A DNA stretch of 64,000 nt from Pocillopora damicornis (Eukaryota). Below are positions 4,320-57,100 of this stretch, piece by piece (positions within the stretch are counted from its first letter, which is position 1; every line of letters begins with the position of its first letter). The stretch lies in the NCBI RefSeq assembly GCF_003704095.1, contig NW_020844940.1, forward strand, positions 1 through 64,000. Direction: 5' to 3'. The translations under genes and the position numbers were made by a program. The notes beneath the pieces were generated by a model. It was not told where the DNA came from. It did no database searches and worked only from the letters and a program-made list of their open reading frames with translations.

Positions 4320-5680
4320 GATGCCGCTGCGTAGATAAGCAGACCACAGTCGTCATGCACACACAGATCTACAGAATACAATTTCAAGAGGATTTAGGTC
4401 AGCTGTTAAGAGATTTTTCGTCATTGATGGAAGTTTACATCGTAAATTTCATCATCAAGCGTACGCAAAAATTTTCTGGAGGTTAGGCGAAGCAGCAGTT
4501 TATCAGAATTGCACAAAAACTTACCTCCTTAAGTGCAAATTCTACAGCCAATATTATTTTAAACTTATGGATAGATAACTCGAGTACTGTCGCTGCTCCA
4601 AAGTTATTTACAGCCGTTGCATGGAGATTTTGCTGAGGTATCATATATGCATGAAAACGTACGTGAGATATTGCTGATCGATTACGTAAACCGTTTGTAA
4701 TGCGCCTGCGCCGATGACTTACTAAATGACGGATCATGACTGCGAGGGAGCGTGAAGAGTTTGGTTTGACATCACTTTGGATCCCACTTCGGATCCCTCC
4801 GGATCCGAAGTGATGTAATTCAACCAATTTGCGTGTTTTTAAATGAGTATGAAAAATAATATGGTGTTTTAAAATGGACGGCGAATAGCTTCCATCTTCT
4901 GAGTGAGATTCAGTGTTTCATCAGGCTTCCATGACAATTTGCAAGTTTGCAAGATGGCACAGACATAAATGTCCTATCATAGATCTCCCATACCTTTCTG
5001 ACTGCAACGATATCCAGGAGGTAGTTTTATACATACTGGTAAAACTGCCTCATGAAAAACAAAAATTCCTTGTATAGTAGTAAGGTGCAAAATTAATCTT
5101 TGATAAAGCTCATCTATAACACAATACAATATTTACTAAAAAAGTGGCTCTTGAATACATATAACTCCATCATAAGAAAAAAATTAATCTTCTCAAATAA
5201 TCACACTTCATTATTACAAGCAACATGTATAAAATTTACTACCCTATTTGAAAAGTCTAGTGATGTTAAAAGTTAAAAAATTTTAAATTTTAGAGTCAAA
5301 TTCATCATTTTACAATTATGCTGATAAGAGCACATGAAAGGGTTAATTTTGGTAAAACAAACTTGACCTTATTTTGATTCATTACGCAGTTTCACTATAA
5401 GTGAAACATCTGTGCATAAAGAGATTATCTCATATTACATAAAATGATATGATTACCAATGATTGCAGAAATTTATTGCTCCTTTTGGAATAGAAGTAAT
5501 GGTGACAAGAAAACTCTTTGAGCTTCGGTTAAAACAAAGTAAACTTTACGATTGTGACTTTAAAAGTAACATTGAACTAATATTATGCAGCCAACACAGG
5601 CAATCATTTCTAGCTAGTAGTTAATTAAAGCAAGCTACTGTAACACACACAGTTGTAACAAGTAGATGGTAAAAATTATA

Positions 5681-5939
5681 CAGCTATTTCAATTTACGTT
5701 GTTGGATCAAAGCCTCAAGCCTACAAGACAAGACTGAAGGGGAATATGGGATCTTAATGAATAATTATCGGCAAAATTAACAATGCCTTGTCCAATACTT
5801 ATTGTATTTTCAGCCTCCATGTCCATCTCGCGCCGACAACCCTGAAAGCCTAAAATTAATTCTAATCTACCCATACCGCCTTTCGGTCTTGTCCCGTACC
5901 CTTGAAGCTTTGATCCGACAATGTAAATTGAAATAGCTG
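5681..5939. mobile_element. Tc1/mariner-type MITE with TA target duplication
   Basis: ~39-bp TIR cagctatttcaatttacgttgttggatcaaagcctcaag vs cttgaagctttgatccgacaatgtaaattgaaatagctg (3 mismatches), with TA on both sides (5679-80, 5940-41). Confidence 0.8.
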
Positions 5940-6115
5940 TATATTGATTCAATGTATTCTGCAATCTACAATTGACTTGATCATCTTTAAAGAAATTCAT
6001 AGTGGAAACAGAATTCAATCAATGCCAAATGCCAGCATTTAGCTCCTAACATCAACAGTTTAAAGCTATAGCTTCACAGAAATTCTGGGTGTTAAAGGGC
6101 TCAAGATAAATAGAC

Positions 6116-6388: not shown

Positions 6389-9300
6389 CTAAATCACTCT
6401 TGAGGGCTGAATATTTTCTTGCCACTCAAACAGAATCCAGTCCTTGATTTCAGTAACAACATCATCTCTTCCCATTTCTTCAAGAATGATTTTAAATCTT
6501 TCCACACAGGTTTCTTTCTTTGAGTCAAAGTGCCGTAAGATTTCTTGTGTTTGATTACCCTTCTGTTTTAGCAACAAGATGGCATCTTTGTCCACACCAA
6601 CTTTTTCCCCAAGGAGGCGATAATCATTCCAACTTATATCCTGCAAAACATCCAGTTTCTGACAAATCTTGCAGTAAAACTGGTAACGTATCTTAGCAAC
6701 TTTTTGGCTGAGCAGAGAGTCAAGGAATTCTTGGGGAATGTCAGAAATTTGTGGGAAAGAAGCTGTTTGGTCAAAAAGCCCTGTTGTGGAGGTGGATGTA
6801 GATTTTTTCCCAAGTCCTATAACAAATAAAACAATTATGTCTATTTAGTAAATAGCTTAGTTTCAACTAGGTGGATACTGAAACTTGAAGTGGAATTTAT
6901 GGGATAATCAGAATTTAACATAATAGAGATTTAATCACCATGTCAGGGTTGTTTATTATATTCAGTTTTCCACTCCAAGATTAAACTGTACTTTAAACTT
7001 CATTTTGTTAAATGAAAAAGTTACATAGCAGTTAATTCCTCACAATTAAAGTGAACCTGTTCCTCCTAGATGCAGCTACAATCAGTGTCAAAATTAGTTG
7101 ACACATCATATTTGAAGAGTTCTGTTCATGTATAGAATAACACTCCAGAACTGTTTCTACCACACTCTAAATTATGGACAGGACCCCCCTCCCCCATTCC
7201 ATGTTGCCTGTATGTAGAAAAAAGAGCACAATATTACTGCATTCTGGCTTCTTTTTAAATTGGATACCNNNNNNNNNNNNNNNNNNNNNNNNNNNNNNNN
7301 NNNNNNNNNNNNNNNNNNNNNNNNNNNNNNNNNNNNNNNNNNNNNNNNNNNNNNNNNNNNNNNNNNNNNNNNNNNNNNNNNNNNNNNNNNNNNNNNNNNN
7401 NNNNNNNNNNNNNNNNNNNNNNNNNNNNNNNNNNNNNNNNNNNNNNNNNNNNNNNNNNNNNNNNNNNNNNNNNNNNNNNNNNNNNNNNNNNNNNNNNNNN
7501 NNNNNNNNNNNNNNNNNNNNNNNNNNNNNNNNNNNNNNNNNNNNNNNNNNNNNNNNNNNNNNNNNNNNNNNNNNNNNNNNNNNNNNNNNNNNNNNNNNNN
7601 NNNNNNNNNNNNNNNNNNNNNNNNNNNNNNNNNNNNNNNNNNNNNNNNNNNNNNNNNNNNNNNNNNNNNNNNNNNNNNNNNNNNNNNNNNNNNNNNNNNN
7701 NNNNNNNTACAAAGGGTTACTGTCTGAAATGTCAGCCTTCAAAAACCATAGTGGTGGTTGACACTAATGGGTGTAGTATAATTACAATAAAATTAACATT
7801 TTTTTAAAATATATAACTAACAAAGATAAAAAACAGAGAGACTGCATAATCACAGCCTCAAGTTCATTTATCACAAATGGTGCCTGAAAGGAGAATGGGG
7901 ATATATTAGACATGAGATTAGTATCAACCCTTACTGATGCCTAGCTGTTAAGCATGAGGTCACCATATTTAACCATACTTTGGAAGAAAAATGAAACAAG
8001 AAATAAGATAATTTAAAGAATAATTAACACAGCAACTGTATTTTTAAAAGCTGTGTACATGAGTGCAAACAGTTCTGGTCAGTTTCTTACTCTCTGATCT
8101 AACAGCTGACATTTTGGAAATGTAGATCAATCTACAATAGGTTTGACAATAATTATTACCTGAACCATTATTTCCAGTCCCATGAGTCAAACCTGGCAAT
8201 GTGTCGTCTCCCATCTCACTTGAATGGGCACCTTGATAAACGACACAGTTTGTTCCTAAATCAATATGGCAAATTTCATGATCTTGCTCTGACAATGATT
8301 GCCCTGGCAAGGATGGAAGTGCATCAACTGTAGTTACTGCTGACTGACTTCTACCTTTATTTTTCTTTTGCAATTTAAACACAATAGCTACTGATAAGAT
8401 CACCAGAGATATTGCAAACAATGTGAATATGATGGTGTTGTTTGAATAACTGCCAAATGGTGGCGATATGTTCTCAGTGTTCGGGTCTTTAGTTGACTTA
8501 GATTCTCTTTCTTGAATGATGCTGGAACCAGCACGAACGAAGGAGCTAGTGGCAGAAATGACCAAATTTGCCGTGGTGGCGAAAATCTGGGAAGGAGAGG
8601 TAACTGTTCCAGATGCAAAAATTGCATGGCTTGTTTGTGAACTTTCCTGAGGGTGCTGTAGGATTTCCACACAATGTATATCCCTCTCATAAGGAATAGT
8701 CGATCCGCAAGGGACAGATGAAGTTGAATATCCCTCAATGCATTCTGGGCAAGGGAAACAACTGTGGCATTTGCCTGTAGAATCAATTCTTTTTATCTCG
8801 CCCGTACAATCTGGGCATCGAGCCGATGCCACTCGCGCAGGGACCTAGCAAAAAGTGGTAAAATGGAGCATTAACCATAGCATAATCAGGCGTGAAAGCA
8901 ACGGTTATTAAGTCTATCAAAATATTATGTGACTATTACGACTGCTTATTTTTTGGTGCGAAATCTTTCTTTTACTTAATTTCGGAAATTCAAACTTACA
9001 TCACCAGTTCCTTGCTTTAATCATATCAGTTACGTGGCTAAAATAGCGGCACTATAGATGTAACTTATCAAATATTATAGCAGCATAAATTTATGTGGAA
9101 AAGGGCATTACAGTTTTGATTATTACACATGGTTGACAACCTCGATCGATAGAATTCTCGAATGGTCAGGACATAACATTTGCGCTTGTTCTGACCACAG
9201 TGCAGACGAAACATTCAAGGGAAATCAAACAGAATCGCAAACATAATCCAAACCCATGGGCTACGAAAAATCTATCTAAGTTTTCAAAAGTACCAGTGAG

Positions 9301-9960
9301 GCCACTAGAGAGAAGTCCTCCATCGGAAAGGTCCGCCATTGTAATGGTTGAAATCGAGGCGATAGTTGCCATGTATGCCTATGTATATGTCAGGGCATAT
9401 CATGTAAGCACGATGGATGATATGCCCTGACACAATGCAGTCCAGATATCGATATCGTCTTTCTCGACAGCAATATCATCCTAGTCAGCATTAGGGGCCG
9501 CTTGTTCGCAGGGAAGTTACTTAAATTCCATGCTAAAAACTCCATCATAGTATTTTAAAATCGTGTGTGAAGAGTTTTGATGCTTGGTCCAAATTTCGCA
9601 AATCAAAGCAAAAACTTGTAAAGAGGCGTTACCGGTAGTTAATTTTTAATGAAGGACAGAACTTAAATAGAGACAAAAAAGAAACATAGACTATTATGAA
9701 GCCAAACGAAAAATTCACTCTTATCTTGGACTACCTACGTCTTGATTTAGCAATTAGGTCTAAAGTTCATAATTCAAATTCCATTGTCGATTCTAGCACT
9801 AGAAATGTTGAAAATCGGTTCTACAAAAACTTTTAATCAAATGTGTGAAATCCCAACTAATAACCAATCATTTCTTACTTACAGTTGAGATGAGGACCAG
9901 TAAGATCGCCGCTGTCATTTTGCAGATTAAGCTTTCTTCGGGAAACGCGAAAGAAGCCAT
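6389..9960 (-). CDS. TNFR-superfamily death receptor-like protein with a single CRD, Ser/Thr stalk, TM helix and death domain
   Basis: Exon 9960..9883 is MASFAFPEESLICKMTAAILLVLIST|gtaagt (signal-like). Exon 8844..8160 carries CRD CPDC..CHSCFPCPECIEG..VPCGST..IHC, an S/T stalk and TM IIFTLFAISLVILSVAIVF. One exon probably lies in the 7268-7707 gap. Last exon 6816..6389 (tag|GA, phase 1) has the death domain ICQKLDVLQDISWNDYRLLGEKVG...LEEMGRDDVVTEIKDW. Confidence 0.8.
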
Positions 9961-10150
9961 TTTCTGCGAAAAACATAAAGTATGAGAAAATTTTTTTAAA
10001 CTATTTCCCTCAAAGTTTTAGATTGACTTGCTTCTTAGCTAATTCCTACAGCCTTGATCAGCCTAAGCATCGAGTACTACATACCTTGAGCGAGAAATGA
10101 ACTAGATACAACCATAGATTGAAGTTTATCAGAAAGAAAGGGGAAAAAAA

Positions 10151-10161
10151 GGGGTTTCCCC
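10151..10161. promoter_or_regulatory. NF-kB (kB) site GGGGTTTCCCC
   Basis: Matches the 11-bp p50-type kB consensus, ~190 bp upstream of the ATG at 9960. Confidence 0.5.
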
Positions 10162-11864
10162 TAATTTGATATTCATCACGTGTACATGAGCTAGCTCCAA
10201 CCATGTTCGACTTTTCTTCGTATTTAAAAAAAGTGGAACAGTGGATGCTCGCGAAATAAAGGCTCGACAAAAAGCGAGAGAAATTTTTGAAGATTAATAG
10301 CAAAGATGTTTAGAACTAAAATAATAATTAAATGTCAAGTGAAACAACTTGGAAAAAAAACACAATGGTATAAGATTTATTGTTACTTTTTTGGCTATGG
10401 AGGAAAAGAACTTCGGGTGACAGATCACGCATCGTATGTTAGACATTTGTGGGACCAATCGTCCAGCGAATGCAACTGTTTAAGTTCAAATTTCTTTTAA
10501 GAAAGGAGTATCGGCTTTTTGTCCAGAGATCTCAAATGATTCCAAATATTGACAAATTCTCTGAGCTTGAGCATAATTCAATATTGCTCGGTTGTCGATA
10601 CTTGTACGCTTCTGATCAGACTGCCGGGCACGGTCTCGAATGGACTAAATGCACGATAGTTAGAAATTTTCACCAAAGTGCCTCAGAAAACCTCCGTGAA
10701 ACTTCTGAAGAGTATCCGGGTTTTGGTATAGAAATGTCAAGCGATTCCAAAAATTAAATTGGTTTTAAGTGGACAATTTTTTCGAGCTCGAGAACTTCAT
10801 TAAAACCTGCTTAGTACATTCCACGTTTGTTCAGAAATGTTGCATGGTTTTTCAGCAACACTGTAAAACACATTAACATTATAGTATGCACGCGCTCGGA
10901 GATATTTGTAAAAAAAAAAATTAATTGTTAGAATCGATTGACGTTTCTAAACAAACGTCTGATGTTCCTGAGAAGTTTGAAAGAACCCTTCGGTGGAAAT
11001 TCTGTGAAAAAAAAAACTGCCGAGCATTTAGCTGTCTATTTGAGACCGTGCCTGCTGCCGAGCATTTAGTCACAGCGTAACATTAATTGATTTTTTCTTT
11101 TTTCGCCATATGCAAATGATCGTAATTTTCGAGTGATGTGACCTAAAGCACTTCCGTTTGATGTGTTTGAAGCACTTTTCGTTCGAGTCTTGTTTTGTAG
11201 ATTTGAAGCCAGTTTTGACGGAAACGCTTGCTCAGCACTATGTTGTGCTGAGCAAGCGTTTTCGTCAAAACTTCAAATTCACAAAACAAGACTAGCGTCG
11301 ACACACTCGGCTTCTTCCTTCAACAGTTCTGTCAATTTAGTTAAAATTTTCTTTTTCCGAAGTAGTATGCTTTTCTTGTATATTTTGATGTCTTGCATTT
11401 AAGATCATTTAAAGAATGAAATTTTGTTAATGTGCTTGCATCACCGCCTGAGCTGAGGACAAATCTGACTTTTGCGTACATGAAAAAAAATGTAAAAATT
11501 CCCATGAGTCAGCATGTTGTGAAGTTCAAAGGGTATTTAAAAAAAAAAAAAAGCTGGAACAATGAACCTCGCATTTCCAGAGCTTTCGTTCATTTTACTT
11601 CAGCTAAGTTAACAGGATGGGGACCAAATAGCTGCTTGAGTTTCAAATTGATTCACCGCACTGACGAAATATGTTTTTAATGGTGCATGATTATTCTCAA
11701 CCCATATTATTATTTGAACTTTTTTTTTCCTGAGGTATTAATGCTGTCTCCAAGCTAATTAAGTATTTCATTCATTGCAATTTTAGAAGTTACCAAGCGG
11801 ATTATCATTCTGGCTTTTGTGTAAAGGTTAAAAATGTCATGTCAAAATGCTGGTGGAGAAATTA

Positions 11865-37644: not shown

Positions 37645-39388
37645 ATGGATGGAGATGGAACAAAGAATCTTTAAACCATATGCTCAACCCCGGGGAGGGA
37701 CAAGAGGATAGGCACGGGTGGGCTGGGGGGGGGGGGGNNNNNNNNNNNNNNNNNNNNNNNNNNNNNNNNNNNNNNNNNNNNNNNNNNNNNNNNNNNNNNN
37801 NNNNNNNNNNNNNNNNNNNNNNNNNNNNNNNNNNNNNCAACTAAGAGCAGCGCACCACGACTCCAAGGGTTGTGTTACAGTACATACAAGCGGGCGCGCT
37901 TGACAGGGAGGACCGATTGGGGGTGGTGGAGAGCGTAAACTCCCTGTGAGAGAGGGGCTCAAATTTAAAGCTTATAAAATTTCCTAAATCCTTTTGGTAA
38001 AAAGCTTTGTGACGGCCATTGTATGTTACCGAAAAGTGTGCGCAAAATTAACCATGGGACTGCATGATACCTGATGCATTTACAAGCCTTACGTTGAATT
38101 TCCGCTTTCATTCCGAATACATCCTGGAAGAAACCGAAGTAGACTAAAGACGAAATATTTCAAGCAGCAACATATTTTGATCGTATAGACCGTTTTTTNN
38201 NNNNNNNNGGCTAATTTTGTATAGAGCTAAGAAATTAAATTGAATTAGATTTTTGATCTGTTTTTGTAAAGGAAAAAAAAAGATTTAAGTTATAGAGATG
38301 AANNNNNNNNNNAGATGAGAATTCTAAATTTTTCAAGTGTTTGATTTTCTTGTTATTCTAATAAAAGTTGCCAACGTTTGAAGTAAATTTTAAGAACCGC
38401 TAAAGTGTAAGGGTTAAATACTGTAAAGATTTAAAGGTCTGTTAGGCCTCATTTTAGGGTTTTTGGGTCCCAAAACATTTCTCAAGTCTGGGAATGGGGA
38501 AAGATGNNNNNNNNNNNNNNNNNNNNNNNNNNNNNNNNNNNNNNNNNNNNNNNNNNNNNNNNNNNNNNNNNNNNNNNNNNNNNNNNNNNNNNNNNNNNNN
38601 NNNNNNNNNNNNNNNNNNNNNNNNNNNNNNNNNNNNNNNNNNNNNNNNNNNNNNNNNNNNNNNNNNNNNNNNNNNNNNNNNNNNNNNNNNNNNNNNNNNN
38701 NNNNNNNNNNNNNNNNNNNNNNNNNNNNNNNNNNNNNNNNNNNNNNNNNNNNNNNNNNNNNNNNNNNNNNNNNNNNNNNNNNNNNNNNNNNNNNNNNNNN
38801 NNNNNNNNNNNNNNNNNNNNNNNNNNNNNNNNNNNNNNNNNNNNNNNNNNNNNNNNNNNNNNNNNNNNNNNNNNNNNNNNNNNNNNNNNNNNNNNNNNNN
38901 NNNNNNNNNNNNNNNNNNNNNNNNNNNNNNNNNNNNNNNNNNNNNNNNNNNNNNNNNNNNNNNNNNNATATTTTGTAGAAGTGTTTTCAGGAACCCTGGT
39001 TGTTTTGTATCATTACATACCATCCAAACTCAATTCTCCGTTACCTAGAGTTCAGGCATCCATTTCCTTCGAAAGTAATTATTTGTTTTTATTTGTTTTT
39101 CTTTTTTTTATGAGTGTGTGTAAAATGTACCATTCAAGTTCGCGTGCTTCGTTAGAGATTATAGTAGTCTCGTGGTGGCGACTTGGTTGTGATGTTGCTT
39201 GCGGCGAGACTGGTTACCCCCAGAGAATTCTGGGTCATAAAAATTCCAAAACGCGCGAAATCGAAACACAAGGGACATCTGGTCTAGAAGAGTTGTTGTA
39301 TGGCGTCGTCACCAGACGGTAGGCCTTTCAAATTATTAACAGTCTTCTTTTGAAAGCTAGAAGAATTAAAAGAAGTGAGGCATTAGCA

Positions 39389-41726
39389 ATGAACGGAGCG
39401 GTAATTCCTGGTACACCAATAGCAGTGGACTTTTGGAGATTGAGGCAGTGTCCACANNNNNNNNNNNNNNNNNNNNNNNNNNNNNNNNNNNNNNNNNNNN
39501 NNNNNNNNNNNNNNNNNNNNNNNNNNNNNNNNNNNNNNNNNNNNNNNNNNNNNNNNNNNNNNNNNNNNNNNNNNNNNNNNNNNNNNNNNNNNNNNNNNNN
39601 NNNNNNNNNNNNNNNNNNNNNNNNNNNNNNNNNNNNNNNNNNNNNNNNNNNNNNNNNNNNNNNNNNNNNNNNNNNNNNNNNNNNNNNNNNNNNNNNNNNN
39701 NNNNNNNNNNNNNNNNNNNNNNNNNNNNNNNNNNNNNNNNNNNNNNNNNNNNNNNNNNNNNNNNNNTTGGGAAAATCCTCTATACCGGGGATTTTCGTCA
39801 TTGTGAACGCATAGCAACACATTCTGCCATTAACAGAAGAGTATTTGATGTGCTGTATCTTGACAATACTTACTGTGATCCCAATTGTATTTTTCCTTCT
39901 CGTACTGAAGCAACTNNNNNNNNNNNNNNNNNNNNNNNNNNNNNNNNNNNNNNNNNNNNNNNNNNNNNNNNNNNNNNNNNNNNNNNNNNNNNNNNNNNNN
40001 NNNNNNNNNNNNNNNNNNNNNNNNNNNNNNNNNNNNNNNNNNNNNNNNNNNNNNNNNNNNNNNNNNNNNNNNNNNNNNNNNNNNNNNNNNNNNNNNNNNN
40101 NNNNNNNNNNNNNNNNNNNNNNNNNNNNNNNNNNNGAAAAATAATGAAATAACTAGGAAGAACATGCAGGCTTGGAACTCTGAAGAACCAACCATTGCTA
40201 TTTTACCAACATGCCTTTATGTTGGTGGGAAAAACCCCTTTGNNNNNNNNNNTAATGTTTTTGTAGTTCCATACTCTGATCATTGTTCTTTTGAAGAGCT
40301 GCAAAAGTTTGTTCAGGTTGTCAAGCCGAGGAGAATCATTCCGATTGTGCATAAACACAGACTGTCACAAGGGGAAACNNNNNNNNNNNNNNNNNNNNNN
40401 NNNNNNNNNNNNNNNNNNNNNNNNNNNNNNNNNNNNNNNNNNNNNNNNNNNNNNNNNNNNNNNNNNNNNNNNNNNNNNCCGAGGAGAATCATTCCGATTG
40501 TGCATAAACACAGACTGTCACAAGGGGAAACTATAAATACTAGAGTGAACATGCATGTCTTCCAATCTTTGCTGGATTATTCTCCATTACAGAAGTACAG
40601 GATCCCTCATTCTGTAACATGCTTCATGAGTTCCATAGCACAGCAGCCCAAGAAGACAAAGGCAAGAGGTCAGCTCTTTACAAGAAAGGCTGCTAAGATC
40701 AAGAAACCTCAAGGGGTAGTCTTTCCTACCAGTCCTGGGGAAAAAGTAGAGAAAGATGAAAAGTGTGGGTTAGACACAGGCAATACAGAGTGTAGTCCTT
40801 CCAAAGAGGTCCCAAGAGATCAGAGAAGTCCAGTCACAGCTGAAGACCTCCAAAAAGGGGGAATGTCAGATAAACCAGTACTCAGTATAAGAGAAGAGAC
40901 CACAGAAGATGAAAATAAATTAGCCTCATCAATAGACAACAAATCAAGCTCATCTGACAATGACAAGATAGAAAGATCAAACAAAAGTGCTCTCAATTGT
41001 GAAGACACTAATTCCAAGGAACAGATGATCACAGAAGATGAGATCAGTACTATTGTTTCACCAAACATAGAATGTGGCAAAATTGGCAGTGAACCACAAG
41101 GAATGTCAGAAGTGGATATTGATTACTTTGATGTAATCATCCCTGCCAATGAAGTCAATCTAGTTGCCTCCTCCACCATTGAACCTTTCATGTCCGGTAG
41201 CAAACCTGAAGGAAACCTGCATCTCACTGATGTTTCCAATGGAGAAGGTTTTCAGTGTGAAAGTATGGTCCAGGAGACAAGTGGAAATGAAAATAGTTTG
41301 GTTGATTTGTCATCAGGCAGAAAAGACTTAACAGAAAGTCAAGTGCAAGAGGAACCCAAGGTTTTTTACAGTGTGGATGTTAATAGGGTTAAACACATTA
41401 CATCTACTTCAGCCAACAAAACCAAGTGTTTGTTTGATGAACATTTGAGTTCCCCCAAGGAAAATATTTCCAACTGCAAGATCAAATGCAAGGATGCGAA
41501 TGACAATAATGCATTTACTTCAGCAAAGAATCTTTCCTTGAAGAATCACTCTCTGAAAAGGAAGTTTAAAGATATTGATACTAACAGCTGTGAGAAGGTC
41601 ATCAATGGAGTTGACAGTCATAGATCAAACATGGAAAAATTCAACATTTATACTGGATACACTTGTGATTTTGCAAGAAAGATACTCGAAGATTTGGTTG
41701 AAACTGCACCTTCAAAAGATAAGTAA
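39389..41726 (+). CDS. DCLRE1B: 5' exonuclease Apollo / SNM1B (metallo-beta-lactamase, beta-CASP)
   Basis: The N-terminus MNGAVIPGTPIAVDFW matches the Apollo start. Motifs ILYTGDFRH, LYLDNTYCDP, PTIAILPT and VPYSDHCSFEELQKFV are present, followed by a long disordered C-terminus. Interrupted by N gaps; no introns visible in the sequenced parts. Confidence 0.92.
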
Positions 41727-41864
41727 CTGAATGCCGATTAGACATTCATTGGACATGATTACCCCAATTCATATTATGCATCTAGTTGTGTTTAAAATGT
41801 CATTAAACTTAATGAAGTAAAGAAAAACCTGCACAGTCATCACTCGACATGGTTTACCTGTTAA

Positions 41865-42068
41865 CCCTTTAAACCCCACAGATCTGATGTTAATTCTCCC
41901 CTATAGCTACAACACATTTCATTGTAACTAAGTTATGAGAATTTGGCGTTAGATCAAGACAAAAACCTGTACTTGATAAATTTGAGAATTCTCATCATAT
42001 CTTTGCTGGATAAGGTATGGACATTATAGGGAGACGTAACATGTTAATCACTCCTGGGAGTTAAAGGG
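41865..42068. mobile_element. TTAA-MITE family copy with intact TTAA TSDs
   Basis: ttaa|ccctttaaacccca...ctgggagttaaaggg|ttaa. Confidence 0.8.
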
Positions 42069-43726
42069 TTAACACCCCTGTGATGATCTCAACCCTTCTA
42101 CTCCCAAGATCTGTGCACAAACCTATGTTATTGTGTGCCACCCAGTCTTAACAATGTTTGTTTTGAGAATCTGGTTTTAAATCTAGCTATTTCCCCTGTT
42201 TATATTGTGCACTAAGGGTGACTTGGTATTGTGGCAGAAGTGAATTTTCAAACCACAATCCTGCACCCTAAATAAATTTTAAACAAGTTTGTTTATTTTT
42301 CTAAGTTGAGTGGAAGCTAGGTGTTTTCTTCATTAGCACATGCACTTGCAAAGTTTCAATCCTTTGAAAAACTTAAGGTAAAGAAAATTATAGAAACAAT
42401 TAATCAAAGTAACTATTGTTAGAGTTATTGTACAATTATAGCAGCATCAATGTTTATATTTTTGTTGATTGAAATTCCCAAAGTGTGATTAAGGAAAACC
42501 CTTGTCAATTATATTACCAGAGGGGGCTCTGAGTAGTGCCTTTCTTTTACTTATTTCTTGCAAGTGACACAAGTGTTGGAGTGAAATACAAGAAAACTTT
42601 GGCAAAATAACTTTGCTTGCAGTCTGACTTTACTGTTGTTTTACTTGCATGAATGCCTTATTGTGTTGTAGGGATTCCAGATCAATTGGAGTTTGCTTTG
42701 TTGCATAATGAAACCAACCAGTGCTCTTTGTAAGCCACTGTCTTACTGACTACATATTTCTCAATGACCAGCAACTTCAATAGGACAACAAGTGTCTTGA
42801 ACTGTAATATGTTTTAGCTTCTGCTTTATTTACTAGATATGTAACCAAAAAGTTTGATTAAAACTGAGGAGCAAGGAATAATTAAAAAAAATAGGAATTG
42901 GCTGTGTCCTTTGGACACTCAGTTTTTTCCTGCTAGCCATTGTCTTCATATGGCTGGCTACATGGCAAGGGAGAGAAAAATAAACTACAACAAAATCTGA
43001 ATGAAATCACTTTGGCAACTATGTATTTAATTGTTTCCTTTTGAATGAAAAATACAAAAGTGGCAGTTCTTTTCACCTTCATTTTAGAGTGTCTAAAAGA
43101 ATGTCCCAGATAAAAGTGCCAAGAAAGGATAACTTCCCATAGCTTCCTTGGCTTTTAATTCTCATGCCCGACCAAGACAGAATTTCTCCCTACAAATCAA
43201 TACAATAACAAGCAGAAAAGTAATAAGAATAAAGAAATGTATTAACAAGGGGTTCATCAGTTGGTCCAGTACCAAATGCTCCTAAATAACATCACGAGAA
43301 TTGAGTGGCAGACAGTAAGGAGAATAACTAGTGAGATCTTGTGGGTGAAAGCTTTAAACATTTTTGTAAAAGTCTAACAACTATGAACATGAGGATTTGT
43401 GTGAAAATGTTATCATGCTCCCCAAAAAATGTTCAGTGTAACTAGGTGTGAGACAACTAAACCATAATCAACTGGTAACCAGGTTGTGGATTTGAGGATT
43501 GTTTGCTTGTCCTGAACTTACTTGGAATTGATTAGCAGGCAACTAACCTGTCACAGTCAAATTGAAGGTTTTCACAGTTTTCAGAGTTTCGAGCTAGACC
43601 AGCAGTCACTTTGCCTGCTGCCCCATCTTGATTAATGTATGACAAGGAGTTCATTTTCCCATCAGTGCAAAAAACTAAAGCAAGTGATGGGCTGAGACAT
43701 AAGTTGGTTTTGTCTCTACTGCCTTT

Positions 43727-43929
43727 TTCCACTTCTCAAAGATCTGATTGTTAATTCTCCCCTCTAACTGGAACACATTTTCTTGTAAACAAGTTACAAG
43801 AATTTGGTATAAGATCAAGATAACCTTTACCTGACAAGTTTGAGTATTCTTATGACCCGTTTGTTGGATGATGTATGGATATTATAGGAAGAAGTTGAAT
43901 GTCAATCACTTCCAGGAGTTAGAGGTTAA
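43727..43929. mobile_element. TTAA-MITE family copy
   Basis: gatctgattgttaattctcccctcta...caggagttagaggttaa is similar to 41865-42068. The left boundary is approximate. Confidence 0.65.
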
Positions 43930-44075
43930 AAGAACTCCTGATCACACATAGTTGCTAATTTAAAGTTAATCTAACACAAGCCACCAATCTATATTTTATT
44001 TGCTATATTTTCATTTAAGTGGTTCAACGTTCATTTCATGGTATAAAACTGTCCTGGGGTATGAAGGTTGTACAC

Positions 44076-47000
44076 TTATTTTAAGTATGCTGTAACCTCC
44101 TTTTTGAGATTTGAAATTTCTTCTGACAATGGCAATTGATCAGGATTAAGAAAGAAATTTTCCAGTTGAACAATTTCCTTAAGTTGTAAATAAGCCAATT
44201 GCTCATTTGTCCGCTTAACAAATGAGTAAAACTGTTCACTATACAGAAGATCCATTGGAATAATCTCAACAACATCAAATGCTGATTTCTCCTGGTCCAG
44301 TTTTGAGAGCTGATCAAAAACCTGTGCAAGATAGGTTATGTAATGTTCAACATCACTGAGAAATCCTTTGCATACCAGAAACCTCTGTGGGCTGAAAAGA
44401 TGTGACACCACTGGTTTAACAATGGCTAATTTATCAAACACCTGGTGCAATATAAACAAAATTCCGACACTGAACCTTGTCAGTGTCTGGTGAAAGTTAA
44501 GGACAAACATTCCTCCACTTTCTAAAAGCCTCAGAGCAACTATGCAAAGATAAACCATCTCTCGTTTTGAACTCAACTCATCAGTGTGGCTGAAATTGGC
44601 AAAGACAAGGTTTACTCTCTGGGAGTTACAGAGAGTTTCATTGTTAATAGCTCCATGAGGTGTTCCACTTTCTGTTGACATGTGTAACCAAATGGAGTTG
44701 AATCTTGCACTCTTCTCTTGTAAGTATTGTTCTAAGGAGTATGGGCCACTGACAAGATTCAGCACAATTCCATAATTTTCACCCTTTGCCATTTCTGAAA
44801 AGAAAACAAGATTATCAAGATTTCGCAGTTCTGCTTCCCCTCCACTTGCCATCTTGACAATGTTTGAAGGATTCACTTTGTCCAAAAGACCTCCGAGATT
44901 GTCAGCATTTTCTCCTCTTAGAATTGCTGCCTGTTGATGTGCCTCCTGCAACTTGCTAATGTAGATTGGGGTGCAGAAACGTGAATTCAAAATGGCCAAA
45001 AAACGAGCTGCAGTCTTAGGTTTCCAGCTCTCTGGTGAAGAACTCTTTGTCCTTGGTAACCATACAACTTGATCATGAGAAAGTGGAATAAGAGGGACGC
45101 TGCTACTGACTTGAGAAAGGTCTGCAACAAGATCGGAAATATGTTTATGAAACAAATTATCAAAAAATTTATCTTCCTCTCTGTCTTGTTTCATAGACAC
45201 TTGAAGGCTGTTTGTGAAAGATTGGAATGTGTGGCATACCAAATAATTGTGGGTCATGGTCATTTTTTTGTTATGAAATTCAGCAAAAAAAAAAAAAGAA
45301 AAAATAATAGGCCTCAACAACACATCCCTTCAGGGGATAATTTACAGAATTTGTAGTTGTTTTTCCCCAACAACCACAAGCGATTTATTTAGGAATTTAA
45401 AGATAGGCTATCAGGTACTAAGCCTGAAATGAGATAAATTGTATTCCTTGGTTACAGATGAATATAGGCTCATCAGTACCACGGTAATAACAATGTTACC
45501 AAATTGTAGAACTGTAAATTTTTTTTCCAGTTATTTGACTGGTGTTCCAAAATGAATAGATTTTGGTAAATCACAGAATGCATTTATACAAGTCATGCCA
45601 TTGGATTTTGGGCTCAGTAATTTGTATGGGGCTATGCTTGGGCTTTCAATTGAGAAAATTAGTCTAACATTATTAAGACATTTTAGGTGGTTGCCTAATT
45701 TTACAGTTTGAAAAGTTACCTCTCCTAAGTAAAACTTGTAATACAGCAGGTCTGAAAGTGCTCTTCTGAGAAATGTCCACAACATAACCATTTTTTGATA
45801 AGGTCTTGAAAAAAATACAATAGTTTACATAGGTTGCTTCAATCAAGGAAATGAAAAACCCATCACCCTACCTTGCAAAGTTCTGGAATGAGATGGACAA
45901 AATTTTAACTGACTATCAACTTTGATTTTGTCCAGCCAGTTCTGGTGAAGATTTCCTTGTCTCTGGTTATAACTTCCCCTCTGACGTGTACCAGCAAAAG
46001 TCTCAGCAAAAGGGACACAATTTGTGGGCCCTCTGTTGAAGCTTAACTGTGTCCCATCTAAGCTGGTACTCATTACTATATGCTCCTCTTCACTGATTGG
46101 CTGCAAGTGGAATTTTTCTACATAGTTTTCCACCACAAGCTGACGAAGTTGATTGTGTGCCTTTCTCTCTGCAGAAGTCATGTAGTGGAACTGTTGAATG
46201 TTCAGATCAATGGCTTCCATTTGAAGTCCTGTAAAGTACTTCTGGCATGTTCTCAATCTCTCCAGAAAAGTGGTGGGAATTGATTGTAAAGAAAAGAGGC
46301 TTGGTAATGGGCAGTGTGGAGTGAAAGCCTTTCTCAGTTCTTCTAAAATGCAACTTGGAATTTGCTGTTCTCCAATAAATCGGAGGCATACAATATATAC
46401 TTCTGAATTACCAGATTTACTAGTACCTAGAAGAAAACAATGAAATAATTTGTTCCTCTTCAAAACTTTTTTTTGGTAAAACTTGATATATTTCAATGTT
46501 TCGATTGTTCAAAATAAGTATGGGGTGTCTTAAGTTAGAGGAGTCTAGGTAAGATTTTCCATTAACCCCTTAACTCTCAAGAACTCATTTTTAATTCTCC
46601 CCTCTAGCTTCTACTCATTACCTTGTAATTAGTTTTGAGAATTTGGTGATAGATCAAGAACATCATTTCTACCTGACAGTGTCTAATTTGAGTATTCTCA
46701 TTACCAGTTTGCTAGGTAATGTGAGGATATTATAGGGAGAAGTTATATGTTAATCACTTCTGGAAGATAAAGTGTTAGGGAGTTCCCAAGTCAGTGTCTA
46801 ACGGGGTTTACCACCTTTTCTCACTATGACACAGAAGGTATCCCATACAACTCAGTAGATCTCTCCTATAAGCTGCGCAATGAGTTATATACATGTTCCT
46901 ACCTGGTTTAATGACTTGTATTTCTTGAAAAACACAAGTAAGAAGATACATCAGAGAAACTACTTGATGCTCAAATGCAGTGAACATTTTGAACACAAGC

Positions 47001-48595
47001 TGCGCAATGAGTTATATACATGTTCCTACCTGGTTTAATGACTTGTATTTCTTGAAAAACACAAGCAAGAAGATACATCAGAGAAACCATTTGATGCTCA
47101 AGTGCAGTGAACATTTTGAACACAAAGTTTCCTCCTTGGCAAAGTAGGTTCATAGCAGCTACTGCCTCACAGAAGATTAATTGCCCCACAAGACTTTCTT
47201 GTTCATCGGGTTGATTAGCACAATTAATACTGCCATCTGCTGTCACCTGAAGAGTGACAAAACCGACCCAAAGAGAAGTATTATTAGACTGTAACTGGTC
47301 TCTTTATTTTTCAATTGAACAGTCAAGATGCCCTATGAAGCAACTGTTCCCTGAGCCCAGGAGATGTGGAGCAAATATTTAACTGGAGAGCTTAAACCAG
47401 ATTGTTGCAGAAGTACCTTTGGGGTCTAAAGAATGTGTAATAGGTGGTGGTGGGGGGAGGGTGCCAAAAGACCAGAAAAGATCCATAGTAAGAATCTTAC
47501 AAACTCAAGTCAAAATTTTGATACATTAGTTAAAATGAAATACATAGAGAATGTTTTCTTTTTTCAGGTTTTTGATTTTGATTGTCAAACCCTCCCACTG
47601 AAATCATGTAACTAAGTTTCACTCATAGACCTTCATTTGTAAAATATCAAAAAATGTTACAGCTCTGGTAAAAAGATTAGGAGACATTCCACCTTCCACC
47701 TAACATGAAGACATAAATAACTAAAATCAGTGGCATATCAAATTCATGTATCTGGGCCTCTGATCTCAAACAGTTTCCAGAATCTCACCCTTAAGTGCCC
47801 AAATTTACACAAACTGGCTGGAGCTACATTATCACAATGAAACCTTCAATCGAAATAATTTAAAGAAAATAAATCATTGTTAGACAACACAAGAGGACTC
47901 TTATGACTTTTCCCTTACCAAGTGACTTTCACCTGTCTCCTGTTTAAGAGAATCCAGATTAGCCAGATTCATCAAGTCTCCAGTTCCATCAACACCAAAA
48001 TTCCAATGCGACAATGTTTTTAATAATAAACCTGTCATCATCCAGCATGGCTTCCAGGTCATTTCCTTCGTAGTAAGGATTCAGAGTATTAGCAACCCAC
48101 TGCCAATCCATACCGTTGTAATGGCTCTTCAAAAAGTGATTCAAACTTGCAACAAAAGCTCCAGGGGCCTCACAGAGGTGCACAGAGCGAAATTTTTCAC
48201 TCCTTTGTGCATCCTCTGGGATAAGATCAAAGGTGTTTAAGATTTCGTAGAATTTTAGTCCAGGCCTGTGTACACATCTCTGCATTGAAGTTCTCTTTGA
48301 GGTGCTTCACGACAAGACCGGCTTTATGAGTTCTACGGGTGTGCAAATGCCATTTGACAATATCCATATCATTCAGCAAACTCTTCTTCCGATTCAAATC
48401 ATCTTTTAGCGAGATCAGGTCGGCTAGAATGAATGGTGGTTCTTGAAACATCGTAGACGAATGCGGAAGTTTCCATGCTTCCTCGTTTGATTTTAAAACA
48501 AATTTTTTGTTAAACAAGGCTTCTATTTCCTCTTGGAAGTTGAAAAAATCGTGTGCATGACGCTTTTGGTACTTTCGTCGTTTCTTAGACGCCAT
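44076..48595 (-). CDS. CMTR2: Cap-specific mRNA (nucleoside-2'-O-)-methyltransferase 2 (FTSJD1); two apparent frameshifts in exon 1
   Basis: Motifs AEMCTQAW-K-FYEIL, SVHLCEAPGAFVASLNHFL, ANTLNPYYEGND, VTADGS, FVFKMFT and KPGTSKSGNSEVYIVC give the K-D-K-E tetrad. A C-terminal second Rossmann-like domain follows (TLTRFSVGILFIL, RFLVCKGF). Exons 48595-47919, 47246-47030, 46426-45872, ~45199-44076. Confidence 0.92.
46566..46778. mobile_element. TTAA-MITE family copy in a CMTR2 intron
   Basis: ttaa|ccccttaactctcaa...aatcacttctggaagataaagtgtta. Confidence 0.65.
46870..47123. repeat. 127-bp tandem duplication covering the 3' half of CMTR2 exon 2 and its donor site
   Basis: 46870-46996 vs 46997-47123, 4 mismatches seen. 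Confidence 0.9.
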
Positions 48596-48813
48596 TGATA
48601 ACGATTAAGATGAACAAAAGACGTTCAAAAGACTACGAAGTGGCCTACATGCGAACCGAAAGCAGCCATATTGACGGACCACTACCGAAAAGACTGGGAT
48701 CTAATCTCTAGACACTCTATGATGACAGTGTGGAAGAGTAATTATTTGCAATTATTCCGCTGTCCCGTTTTAGTTTTGTAATTTAATTGATCGCTGAACA
48801 GAGCTAGGCTAAC
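48596..48813. promoter_or_regulatory. Putative bidirectional promoter shared by CMTR2 and KDM8
   Basis: Divergent start codons only 218 bp apart; the interval contains several CpGs. Confidence 0.65.
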
Positions 48814-50711
48814 ATGTCGGACTTCCCAGCTGGAACCAACAGCGCTGTATCAGTGCTCCAGGTGCTTCTCCCGTCAGTTCAGGATGCTAAAGATTTAAAG
48901 CTTGCTCATAATCTATGTCAATTATCCAAGTTTGGGGGTGACCCAGTACTTTTTCTTCTAACTCAAGGGATACATGAGTTCTTCTGTGGTAACCTAGACA
49001 GTTGTCTGTCAAGTTGTCAATCTGTGATTGATATCTGTTGGGAGAAATGTAATACGGGTCACTGGAGAGATGTGAATGTAATCTGGAGGGAGACATATTC
49101 GTATGCAAGTTTGTTCAAGGCTCTTTGCCTCGACGGCGTAGGAAGACAGATAGAGGCCATGAAGACTTGTGACATGGGACTTCTGTTAGGGGCCCCCATT
49201 TTGGACAACATTTTAACAAGGCTTGCAACTGAATTTCAGAAAAATGTTAAGTCAAGTAGTATAACTGATCAAGACACAGCAGACAGTACTTTAGGTTGTT
49301 ATGAATCTAAAATTCATTCAAAAGGAGAAGAAACAAACTTTTCAGCAGTTGTGAGATCCAAAGAAAAAAAGAGGTTGAGGGACGACTCAATGAATCTTCA
49401 GCCTGAATCTAGTGGAGATGAACAGTTATCTACAAGTATTAATTCTACAAAGAGAAGGAAGGGTGTTGCAAATTTACCCATAATTGACAAGAATTATGAA
49501 CTGAGCCATGTTTGTTGTCCATCAATCGAAGCTTTTCTCACAAATCACATGCAGAAAGACAAACCAGTAATTCTTGAAGGAGTAATGGATCACTGGCCTG
49601 CAAGAACGAATCATCAATGGAGTATCGATTATCTTAAGAATATCGCTGGTTATCGCACAGTTCCAGTGGAGCTGGGCTCACGTTATACAGATGACACATG
49701 GACACAGAAATTAATGTCAATAGGAGATTTTATTGACAATTATATCAATCCAATTGAAAATGGACAAGAGTCTGAGATTGCTTATTTAGCTCAACACCAA
49801 TTGTTTGATCAGATCCCCGAGTTAAGAAGAGATATCATTACTCCTGATTACTGCTACATTGGAGAAAGTGATAATGAGGTTATCATTAATGCCTGGTTTG
49901 GACCTAAGGGTACAATTTCACCCATGCATCATGACCCTTATCACAATCTATTGGCACAAGTGGTTGGAGAGAAATATATACGACTTTATTCCAAAAGTGA
50001 AACAGGGAAGCTTTATCCTCACAAATCTACCCTACTGAATAACACAAGTCAGGTAATTTGTGTTCCTTTCAGAAGAAACATATTTGTGTACAGTCAGAGA
50101 AATTGTCGTCATTTCTCCTTTTGCAGTTGACCTTCATTCTTTACAGAGATGTTTCCTTGCCTCCCTCAGCATGTTAATATCCACATTAGAAAAGAAAACT
50201 GACCATGTCCCTCTTTCTTACCCTAGTCTGTAAAGGAAGTTAGAGGTATCTGGAGGAGTGTGTTTCCATGGCAACAATTGTTTTTCAGTGATTAATATAA
50301 ATCACTTGATCGACTAAGGTGGATGAGATGGGCCTCTACTGGTAAACCTTCATTTGTGTCTACTCAGCGTATGCCAGTTGGAGCCAGTGGGGAACTACTT
50401 AAAAAGCAGTTAACATGTCAACCAAAGAAGCACAAATACTACTGAAATAACTTCAAATAAGTGTCATATTTGAAATACAATCCTTATTACAAATTAGAGA
50501 TACTTTTACATAAAAATAAGATTTCTATCCAATTTTGTATTTTCAGGTGGATGTTGAAGTGCCTGATCTCGTCAAATTTCCTGAATTCTCTTCAGCAGTT
50601 TATCAGGAGTGTATTTTGAAGGAAGGACAGATGTTGTATATCCCCCCGTATTACTGGCACTATGTCAGGTCCTTGTCTCTCAGCTTTTCTGTCAGTTTCT
50701 GGTGGTCCTGA
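48814..50711 (+). CDS. KDM8: JmjC-domain 2-oxoglutarate oxygenase JMJD5 / KDM8
   Basis: N-terminal [12 protein letters not shown] and [10 protein letters not shown]. JmjC domain with [27 protein letters not shown] and [30 protein letters not shown]. Exon 1 48814-50052 (CAG|gtaatt); exon 2 50547-50711 (VDVEVPD...[25 protein letters not shown]). AATAAA at 50742. Confidence 0.95.
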
Positions 50712-54174: not shown

Positions 54175-57100
54175 ATGGATTCTGTAGCCGAGGACGATAT
54201 AACTCTTCCTCTAGATTTTGATCGGAGGTAATTTGACAATGACATCTTAATAGTGTTTCGCTTTGTTTGACAAGTTGTTTTGGGTTCATCGATCGCTGTG
54301 CGGTTTTGTCCGGGGTTATTAATCCTTCGGGTTGATCTATTATTTATATTGATAGTCTTTCATTAGCTTCATTTGCAGCTTGAATAAAGCTTATTTTGAT
54401 TCTAAATTTCATCCCCTTAGCACTAACCTCGCAAGGTTCAGGGAGGCTGTTGTGGCGGGCACGGGAGGTGACATGTTGGATTCCTCCGCTGAATTTTCCG
54501 AGGGGTTAACAGTACGACCTACAACAACAGGTTAGGATTTCTATTTTTGCTTCAGAGTTCCGCTCCATCGTCGAGCTGGGGATCTCGCATCTCAGGCGCC
54601 AATGGCTCATTTGTAATTCATTACTTTGCCATTTTTCCAAGGCATGCAGTGCACGTATACGTAATCCCTGTCAACTTTTTGAGATTTCCAACCTTGTAAA
54701 ATTGGTCAGGAATTTCGAAAAGCCACACTAGCCTGTTTAGCTTAGACAGTGTGAACGTCAAGATAAGAGACAATTTGGATTTGTTACTCTTTGTTGCCCG
54801 TGTGATTGTGAGCAGTTGTTCATAATTTAGACATAAGGATTACAGTCTCGTAATTTGAGTCTTAAGATGAGATGTCTGTCTATAAGAATATCACGCAGTT
54901 GAGATAACAGCTTTCAGTTTAGAAAAAAATTGTTTTCTCTGTAGTGTAGTTAAGTTCATAGTTACTATAACAGTGTTACTAATAAACATAATTATAGCTA
55001 CGGTATAGTTATCAACATAATTACAGCTTTAATTACCATGACACAGCATCTGCCAGAGTGCAGTCATGATCAACACATGAATTCTTTCCACAATACCAAA
55101 ACATTGTCTAGCCAACAGGTAATAAGAAGCAAGAAATTGATCCGTTTTGTAAGATCTTGATGGAATGATAAACTCTCATAGCTTATTTTAAAGGAAATGT
55201 GAGGAAAGGAGTAGAGAGAATTTTGATTCAGATCACTTGGAAGGGTTCCAAATGTTTTAGTTTAGTGTTCAGGCGCAAAAATCAGAAATTCAGTCTTCCT
55301 TTACAATATCAAACTTGCAGACTAAAATCTAAATGGATGAGTAATAACATTCATATACTTTGACCCATTCTTTCTGCATTTTTGACCCATCACTTTGGGA
55401 AAGACAGAGCTTAGAAACTTTAGATAAATTGAGGGACAAACTGCATGTGCATCAAGAATCTTGTACACTAGGTACACTACAGTGAAAATAATAAGCTGAA
55501 GTACACTTTATCTCCTTCTAGGTGCAGCTAATCAAGACAGTGGTGGGTCTCCTCAAACAAAAACAATGAAAGACTATGAATATGTAAGTGAACTTTAACA
55601 GTGATACAGTGTTCTAATCCTTTGTTAGACTTGAAATAAAAGAAACTCTTTGTTTCTCACCATTATGAAACTACAGCATTAGGTCAAGATTTCTTGGATA
55701 GTGGACCATCTTTTTGCTTGGACTGTTTCTTCCCCTTGGAATATGAAGCAGCCAAAAAGAGTTCTGTACTATTGTTAATTGTAAGAATTTTATCTGATCA
55801 CTCCAAGAGTTTACTTGTTCCTTAACAATCTCAGAAACATATTTTAGAAAGGTGCAACTTCATCAACTGATTATGCCTGGCTGCAATTGTAACAACCCTC
55901 TCATTCTCAATTATCTCTTTACCGACCCCAAAAATTATGGTTATAGATCACTAAGTATACAGGGTTGATTTTTATCCAATTCTTTTGGTCAGTTTATCAG
56001 CTTTATGCAGTTAAAAATTAATTTTGATATCAGTTTCAATAATTCCCAGGAGCTGACAAAAGCTTTTTACAGATGTGTGTGTCTGAGCTTCCTGTCCACC
56101 TGTGCTTCAATAGCCATATTACTTACACAGTTAAAAGCAGTTGGAATTATTCTTCTTAAAATGCGCATATTTGAAGCCTATTTTTTTTCCATTTTTTACA
56201 ACTAAATTTGAAGTGAACTTTTATTTCAGTTCTTCTTTAGTTTGAATATTTATATTCTTCTTATATTCAAAGTGGCCCCTGTTGATAGAGGGAAAATGAA
56301 AATTTAAGGCATTTCAGGGTTACAGCTGACAGCATTAAGGAGTAAAAAGTCTCAACTCAAGGATGAATATTTTTGAGGTCATTTGGCTAATGTGGGCAAG
56401 ATTTGCATTTAAAGGATAACTTTATTTTTTCAATTAAACCATGGCCAAACAGCTGAATGAGGTTTGAACAATATTTATCTGCAAAATTGTCAAAATATTA
56501 CAGCAGGAATTGTGATTTGTTTCCATGTTGGATTTTTGTCTTAGGATTGTCTGGAGGTGGCTGAAAAATCAACACAATTAAAAAATATAATTTTTGTGTG
56601 CAATTAATTACATTCTGCTTTGTCTGTTCATAGCAAATATCAGAGCTAAAGAAAGAAAATTTTGGTTTGAAGCTGAGAATTTATTTCTTGGAAGAACGTG
56701 TTAACCAGAGTGGTGATGTTCCAGAGGACATTTTCAAGGCTGTAAGTAAAATTGACTTTTTATAAACTAAATTTCCTGTTATTTGTTTATTTCTTGATTG
56801 AAAGTATCAACTTAATTACTCAATAAATTCCATTTACTTCATAAATTTTTAGAATGGAGTTAATGCAGTATACAGCTTGACTTACTGTAGAAGAAAAAAA
56901 TCAATTTATTCCATTTTAGATTAAAAGATTTTAAAGTCATCTTAGTGAAAAGGTTACATGTACTTTTTGTAAATTAAGGAATTGTAGAGGTTTGGTGTAC
57001 TAAGCAAAAAGGTTTTGAAATTTTTAACCCTTTCACTCCCAAAATCTCCTTAGAAAATCTCCTTACTGTTTGCCATACAGTTCTTATGATGTCAGTTTTG

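Follow-up and report, generated by a model that had tools for sequence, protein, structure and literature searches.

The window analysed here is the whole stretch of 64,000 nucleotides (64 kb) of Pocillopora damicornis DNA. Within it, three tandem and apparently non-coding units, ~1.2 kb each, occupy positions 11090-15379 between two TNFR/death-domain genes. The original prediction had set the locus in a TNFR cluster, and the region is indeed flanked by minus-strand TNFR-like genes with death domains, of which TNFR-C shares 47% identity with a named protein of Stylophora. The first unit, copy 1, contains a fold-back of 108 bases in non-coding DNA 5' of TNFR-like gene B. The gene model places this hairpin at ~1.0-1.1 kb upstream of the probable start of gene B, and thus presumably outside its exons. 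The features are collected in Table 1.

Table 1. Positions of the hairpin, the repeat units and the flanking TNFR-like genes in the window.
Feature	Position	Strand	Remarks
Left arm	11186-11238, 53 nt	.	Reverse-complement copy of the right arm; new sequence
Loop	11239-11244, 6 nt	.	
Right arm	11245-11293, 49 nt	.	Ancestral; 4 nt less than in the left arm; collinear with both sister copies
Diverged ~25-nt tandem duplication	11134-11183	.	Directly left of the left arm; copy 1 only; repeated 7-8-mers at 11134/11159 and 11146/11170
Unit copy 1	11090-13290, ends approximate	.	Length ~1.2 kb if the inserted element is left out; identity to copies 2 and 3 ~70%
TA-flanked element with terminal inverted repeats, 977 bp	11865-12841	.	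Inserted in copy 1; Tc1/mariner-type MITE by anatomy
Unit copy 2	13290-14420	.	Without hairpin; 100-N gap 14164-14263; arm homologue 13413-13467
Unit copy 3	14420-15379	.	Without hairpin; ends in an N gap; arm homologue 14537-14591
TNFR-like gene B	6389-10160	-	Death-domain exon 6389-6844; cysteine-rich/transmembrane exon 8044-8836; signal exon ~9883-9963
TNFR-like gene B, 5' end	~10085 (exon end); 10151 (site)	-	Probable 5' UTR exon; kappaB-like site; exon boundaries by eye from splice signals
TNFR-like gene C	16355-18310	-	TNFR_c6 below gathering score, death domain above; units lie 3' of its stop codon

On the 3' side of the arm, copy 1 agrees with copy 2 at 382 of 540 positions and with copy 3 at 353 of 509, and copies 2 and 3 agree with each other at 513 of 601. 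A profile of the three units gives a meaningful E-value in the window only for the units themselves and for the left arm. Because of the 100-N gap within copy 2, copies 2 and 3 could be haplotigs, but it is more likely that they are tandem paralogues, since the gap is in register with the tandem arrangement. A 7-nt duplication in copy 3 (14588-14608) is carried by the related record P0133 and missing from P0135 and P0139, and it is thus polymorphic.

We have also considered the possibility of a coding exon over the arm. The plus-strand frame across it runs without a stop for 71-86 codons in each of the three copies, the minus-strand frame of copy 3 resembles a signal peptide, and the only ATG-started frame across the stem has 44 codons. 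No Pfam match was obtained for the unit frames tested, and no Rfam family for the unit. Among 21 candidate translations from public contigs, nine match the unit (49 member sequences); all nine are copy-2-like or copy-3-like, and their stops and frameshifts vary from record to record. The frames in related contigs are 51, 62, 63, 73, 132 and 134 residues long, with differing shifts, and a comparison of the minus-strand frame with 1.84 billion representatives returned one match, namely a frameshifted translation of the same repeat unit. The coding exon was rejected on the basis of the missing Pfam match, the freely shifting and stopping frames and the frameshifted nature of the lone match, and the repeat unit looks non-coding.

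The hairpin is a real inverted repeat. The two arms, the 6-nt loop, about three mismatches and a 4-nt bulge had been described beforehand, with coordinates that proved to be exact. When the left arm is reverse-complemented and aligned with the right one, there are 46/49 identities, 3 substitutions and one 4-nt gap, which forms the bulge. On the plus strand, the positions of the three substitutions give two G.U wobbles and one mismatch, while the inner 28 bp of the stem are unbroken, including one G.U.

A folding calculation, suggested as a check along with the original prediction, yields a minimum free energy of -76.7 kcal/mol for 11170-11310, with z = -11.8 and none of 200 dinucleotide shuffles as good. 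At -79.0 kcal/mol, the tile containing the hairpin is the lowest of the 2315 150-nt tiles in the window, for which the median is -26.9. The plus strand of the hairpin is more stable than the minus strand (-73.0 vs -68.4 kcal/mol). Copies 2 and 3 had been said to carry the right arm only, and this is what we find; their homologous stretches (131-136 nt, both strands) fold weakly, at -24 to -32 kcal/mol.

The sister copies also reveal how the left arm came to its place. From the shared upstream anchor to the right arm there are 59 nt in copy 1, compared to 36 and 37 nt, unlike the left arm, in copies 2 and 3. The 53 nt of inverted sequence therefore stand in place of 30-31 nt that copies 2 and 3 have kept, with the 6-nt loop left over. 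No target-site duplication is present, and on both of its sides the right arm runs collinearly with the sister copies. The simple inverted duplication originally proposed was thus correctly seen as local, but the left arm replaces ancestral sequence and is not merely added. Common states of the two arms that differ from those of copies 2 and 3 point to the right arm of copy 1 itself as the template of the left arm, in an event that followed the divergence of copy 1.

Several changes have followed. With copies 2 and 3 as reference, that is, with the ancestral state polarised by paralogous copies only, two of the substitutions are on the left arm and one is on the right, all of them transitions. 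No compensatory pair is present, as each of the three is confined to a single arm with no partner change. That two of them appear as G.U on the plus strand is uninformative, because any transition gives a G.U on one of the strands. The spacer is 4 nt longer in the left arm and 6 nt longer in copies 2 and 3 than it is in the right arm; because the left arm retains a longer spacer, like the sister copies, the 4-nt deletion in the right arm would be later than the event. The arms differ from each other by ~6%, vs ~15% between copies 2 and 3. The hairpin thus appears to be young relative to the unit duplications, and its earlier description as newly born holds in this relative sense only: with three substitutions and one deletion since the event, it is not brand new.

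These observations fit a template switch. In such an event, the growing strand would leave its template near the present-day loop, read 53 nt of adjacent sequence backwards and then return, with 30-31 ancestral nt being replaced. The stem would have been perfect at birth, and ordinary mutation would have added the three transitions and the 4-nt deletion. The hairpin would be neutral, with transcription too low or processing too imprecise for a miRNA gene. We consider it probable that a template-switch-type replacement in copy 1 made the inverted repeat, most likely as a neutral change. Judged from the alignments, the 53-nt inverted copy in place of 30-31 unrelated nt fits the definition of a template-switch mutation (TSM), for which an inverted fragment of at least 15 nt has to account for at least five differences from the ancestral sequence better than point changes would. 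The sharp gain in folding energy that also characterizes TSMs is seen in the -73 kcal/mol of the hairpin vs -24 to -32 kcal/mol of the corresponding segments in copies 2 and 3.

Template switching is presented in the available text of PMC10710096 as a complex replacement in one step, by which stems arise from unstructured sequence. There, 57 of the 6,054 suitable genic template-switch hairpins in primates (0.9%) are annotated as miRNAs. This prior comes from primates, which may count against the argument for neutrality when it is applied to a coral. The hairpin is similar to the TSM hairpins and TSM-born miRNAs of that text in the one-step replacement, in the miRNA-sized stem formed from unstructured sequence and in the later point changes. 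For those hairpins the pre-mutation state is seen in relatives, while here it is seen in paralogous copies. The miRNAs described there are from primates and mice and are intragenic at 99 of 111 loci, whereas the coral hairpin is intergenic. The locus would thus be a coral example of a template-switch mutation, legible because two sister copies preserve the ancestral sequence. It is important to point out that the hairpin is one among several fold-backs per 64 kb: there are at least four others in the window, and hairpins of similar size are not rare here (16079-16156, 20226-20373 and 9388-9432). No report of this locus was found in the literature search, to the extent of the texts accessible to it.

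Another option considered was that the hairpin is a young hpRNA/endo-siRNA or proto-miRNA locus. It would be transcribed either from a divergent TNFR-B promoter (plus strand) or by read-through from TNFR-C (minus strand), and Dicer-cut small RNAs on AGO2 would cleave the transcripts of copies 2 and 3. The size of the hairpin suits a precursor, and the stem-loop is as stable as miRNA precursors are required to be. However, the stem is long, 49 bp vs the 30-35 bp of canonical miRNA hairpins, and the loop is smaller than the canonical value; according to the accessible part of PMC12553114, a too small loop hinders DGCR8. The plus strand folds better, and the TNFR-B promoter, ~1 kb away, could transcribe the hairpin divergently. 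In primates, 4 of 12 intergenic template-switch miRNAs are situated <1 kb from a gene promoter (PMC10710096, available text). The arm is also the best-conserved 49-column window of the unit (45/49 vs copy 3 and 43/49 vs copy 2, with a background of 71-72%), which hints at constraint but is borderline after correction, with P = 0.026 for copies 1 and 3, 0.37 for copies 1 and 2, and 0.11 for all three. The plus-strand stability, the nearby promoter and the conservation of the arm keep the small-RNA possibility alive, although they are not strong arguments.

Targets were predicted with a plant-style scan of all 22-mers from both strands of the stem against the window, with penalties up to 4. This gave 94 guide-site pairs, 91 of them in copies 2 and 3 (best penalty 1.0) and three near 5712, all at a single site (3.5). 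The best penalties obtained with 12 shuffled left arms are 4.0-6.5; the 5712 site beats all 12 of them and is at chance level by alignment score. Small RNAs from the stem would thus pair closely with the sister copies, as had been anticipated, but this complementarity follows from homology alone. Furthermore, none of the 94 predicted sites in the 64-kb window is exonic. In the sequenced part, the first two canonical poly(A) signals 3' of TNFR-C are found at 15049 and 14868 (387 unknown bases precede them), and the copy-3 site is located past both, by ~280 and ~460 nt. For copy 3 to be part of the TNFR-C mRNA, the 3' UTR would therefore have to pass both signals.

In Drosophila, hpRNA endo-siRNA loci have a long stem that feeds the siRNA pathway and pairs with paralogous sequence. 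The coral stem, likewise long, could enter such a pathway and be complementary to paralogous sequence as well, but it is a single short stem and from a different phylum. Such Drosophila loci are mentioned in the accessible part of PMC12553114. The inverted-duplication model invoked in the original prediction has been published for cnidarian miRNAs (PMC7713132), where, in the text available, it concerns inverted copies of protein-coding target genes; here, however, the source is intergenic and carries no coding signature. Extended homology to a protein-coding target is absent within the window, considering the lack of exonic sites and of Pfam matches for the unit frames. As in the cnidarian and plant miRNAs of that type (PMC7713132, available text; e.g. 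Nematostella miR-2041b), we have a hexacoral hairpin with extended homology to a nearby locus, but their target is protein-coding, while the coral homologues are non-coding tandem copies. The same source proposes a route from hairpin to endo-siRNA to miRNA in Hexacorallia, which speaks for a small-RNA function.

The hairpin was also compared with known families and catalogues. No Rfam family reaches its gathering score over the hairpin or over copies 2-3; for the hairpin, the best match is 45.9 bits vs a gathering score of 211, with generic hairpin matches only. By eye, none of the 37 P. tuahiniensis miRNAs (Table S5 of PMC13343488) and none of the 31 S. pistillata miRNAs (PMC3962355) matches the stem, as far as the accessible parts of these sources go; the catalogues are small, from adult tissue and strictly called, and their species may be without the hairpin. 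The use of a heterospecific reference is a further limit on such negatives (bioRxiv 10.64898/2026.07.19.739451, in the part available). In the compiled cnidarian list (Table S2 of PMC13343488, available part), 11 short stem fragments gave only chance overlaps of 7-11 nt among the matches listed, for example with spi-miR-temp-2 and -6, and six stem fragments looked up in the text of papers gave, among the matches listed, three unrelated papers on rice and human. According to the available text, the CoralmiR set comprises 436 miRNAs, including those of P. verrucosa (bioRxiv 10.1101/2021.11.03.467195). The proposed proto-miRNA thus keeps its precursor-like size and stability, but has no Rfam family and no match to a family or mature sequence among the catalogued coral miRNAs compared, and we regard it as possible but unlikely. 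For a small-RNA locus of any of these kinds, our estimate is likewise that it is unlikely.

The most far-reaching version of this idea would be a functional regulator, namely a miRNA or endo-siRNA gene at birth, made by one template switch and transcribed from the neighbouring TNFR promoter. Its small RNAs would silence transcripts passing through copies 2 and 3, perhaps 3' extensions of the TNFR gene that precedes them. The birth of miRNAs by template switching would then be known from Cnidaria too, and the state before the mutation could still be read in the adjacent copies, but we find this decidedly improbable.

Alternatively, the unit could have been duplicated as a cis-regulatory or 3'-flank element belonging to the TNFR cluster, with the arm functional as DNA in all copies, in which case the inversion would tune TNFR-B either through a second binding site or through a cruciform. 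The units are located 1-5.5 kb upstream of TNFR-B, and motif matches are found for AP-1-type sites at 11505 and 13654 and for an octamer at 11110, but short motifs of this kind are common by chance. The conservation of the arm would fit as well, with the borderline significance noted above counting against it. We judge this explanation to be quite unlikely.

The palindrome could also be part of a dispersed MITE or another transposon, which had been named at the outset as a finding that would overturn the miRNA proposal. Elements with terminal inverted repeats abound in the region, the other long fold-backs of the window seem to be related to MITEs, and over ~30 nt the arm is similar to the element at 5677-5943. 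This likeness was rejected as homology, however, because it is at chance level: 61 of 150 shuffles of the right arm and 12 of 150 of the left arm reach the scores. The arm of copy 3 scores better against shuffles (3/150), with a gappy match near 26978. Within the window, the flanks differ, neither a target-site duplication nor a further copy is found in the 64 kb, and the right arm continues collinearly into the sister copies. In public contigs, all nine translated matches are close to copy 2 or 3, with no diverged dispersed copy among them. The apparently MITE-derived hairpins at 16079-16156 and 20226-20373 do share with the template-switch hairpin a long near-perfect stem and a similar size and energy, but the latter has no element boundaries, target-site duplication or dispersed copies in the window. 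A transposon origin is thus very unlikely. The least probable case, an assembly artefact in the form of a fold-back chimera, draws on the gappy assembly (20 N runs) and on the fact that no independent record of the hairpin was found in searches that could hardly detect copy 1 (44-codon frame look-up, prokaryote genomes), but it is extremely unlikely, as there is no gap within 2.8 kb of the hairpin and a fold-back read of one molecule would not produce the four differences between the arms, which go in both directions when copies 2 and 3 are taken as reference.

Several other elements were noted in the window. The element at 5677-5943, downstream of TNFR-B, is 267 bp long and has long terminal inverted repeats. 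An older terminal-inverted-repeat element of 426 bp, with flanks alike at 6 of 8 bases, is found at 10627-11052, between copy 1 and the TNFR-B promoter. A dispersed MITE-like element at 15933-16325, with a central hairpin at 16079-16156 (-45 kcal/mol), is probably within the TNFR-C 3' UTR, because it ends 30 nt past the stop codon; its relatives are at 30-238, 41860-42073, 43154-43363, 43734-43936, 46562-46777 and 57018-57222. The second-strongest fold-back of the window, at 20226-20373 (-70.5 kcal/mol), has a shorter relative at 19900-20010, and both look as if they belonged to a common coral MITE. A perfect 16-bp inverted repeat with a 13-nt spacer (9388-9432) is located in the first coding intron of TNFR-B; it would be transcribed if TNFR-B is, and it is too short for a canonical pre-miRNA.

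Finally, positions 1779-2612, between two 100-N gaps, match the TNFR-B exon region at 7708-8529 in inverted orientation and with 84% identity, and would be either a paralogue or a mis-oriented haplotig. Further along the window there are a metallo-beta-lactamase nuclease-like gene, SNM1/Apollo-like by eye (39323-41726), an FtsJ-like, CMTR2-like methyltransferase with a weak Pfam match (44076-48604), and KDM8/JMJD5 (48808-50130), with KDM8 being 70% identical to a Desmophyllum protein, 64% to a Montipora one and 96-99% to several other clusters, as would fit a stony coral and, given the many near-identical records, Pocillopora. A weak tRNA-like match of 31.7 bits at 59242-59314 is probably a tRNA-derived repeat or pseudogene.
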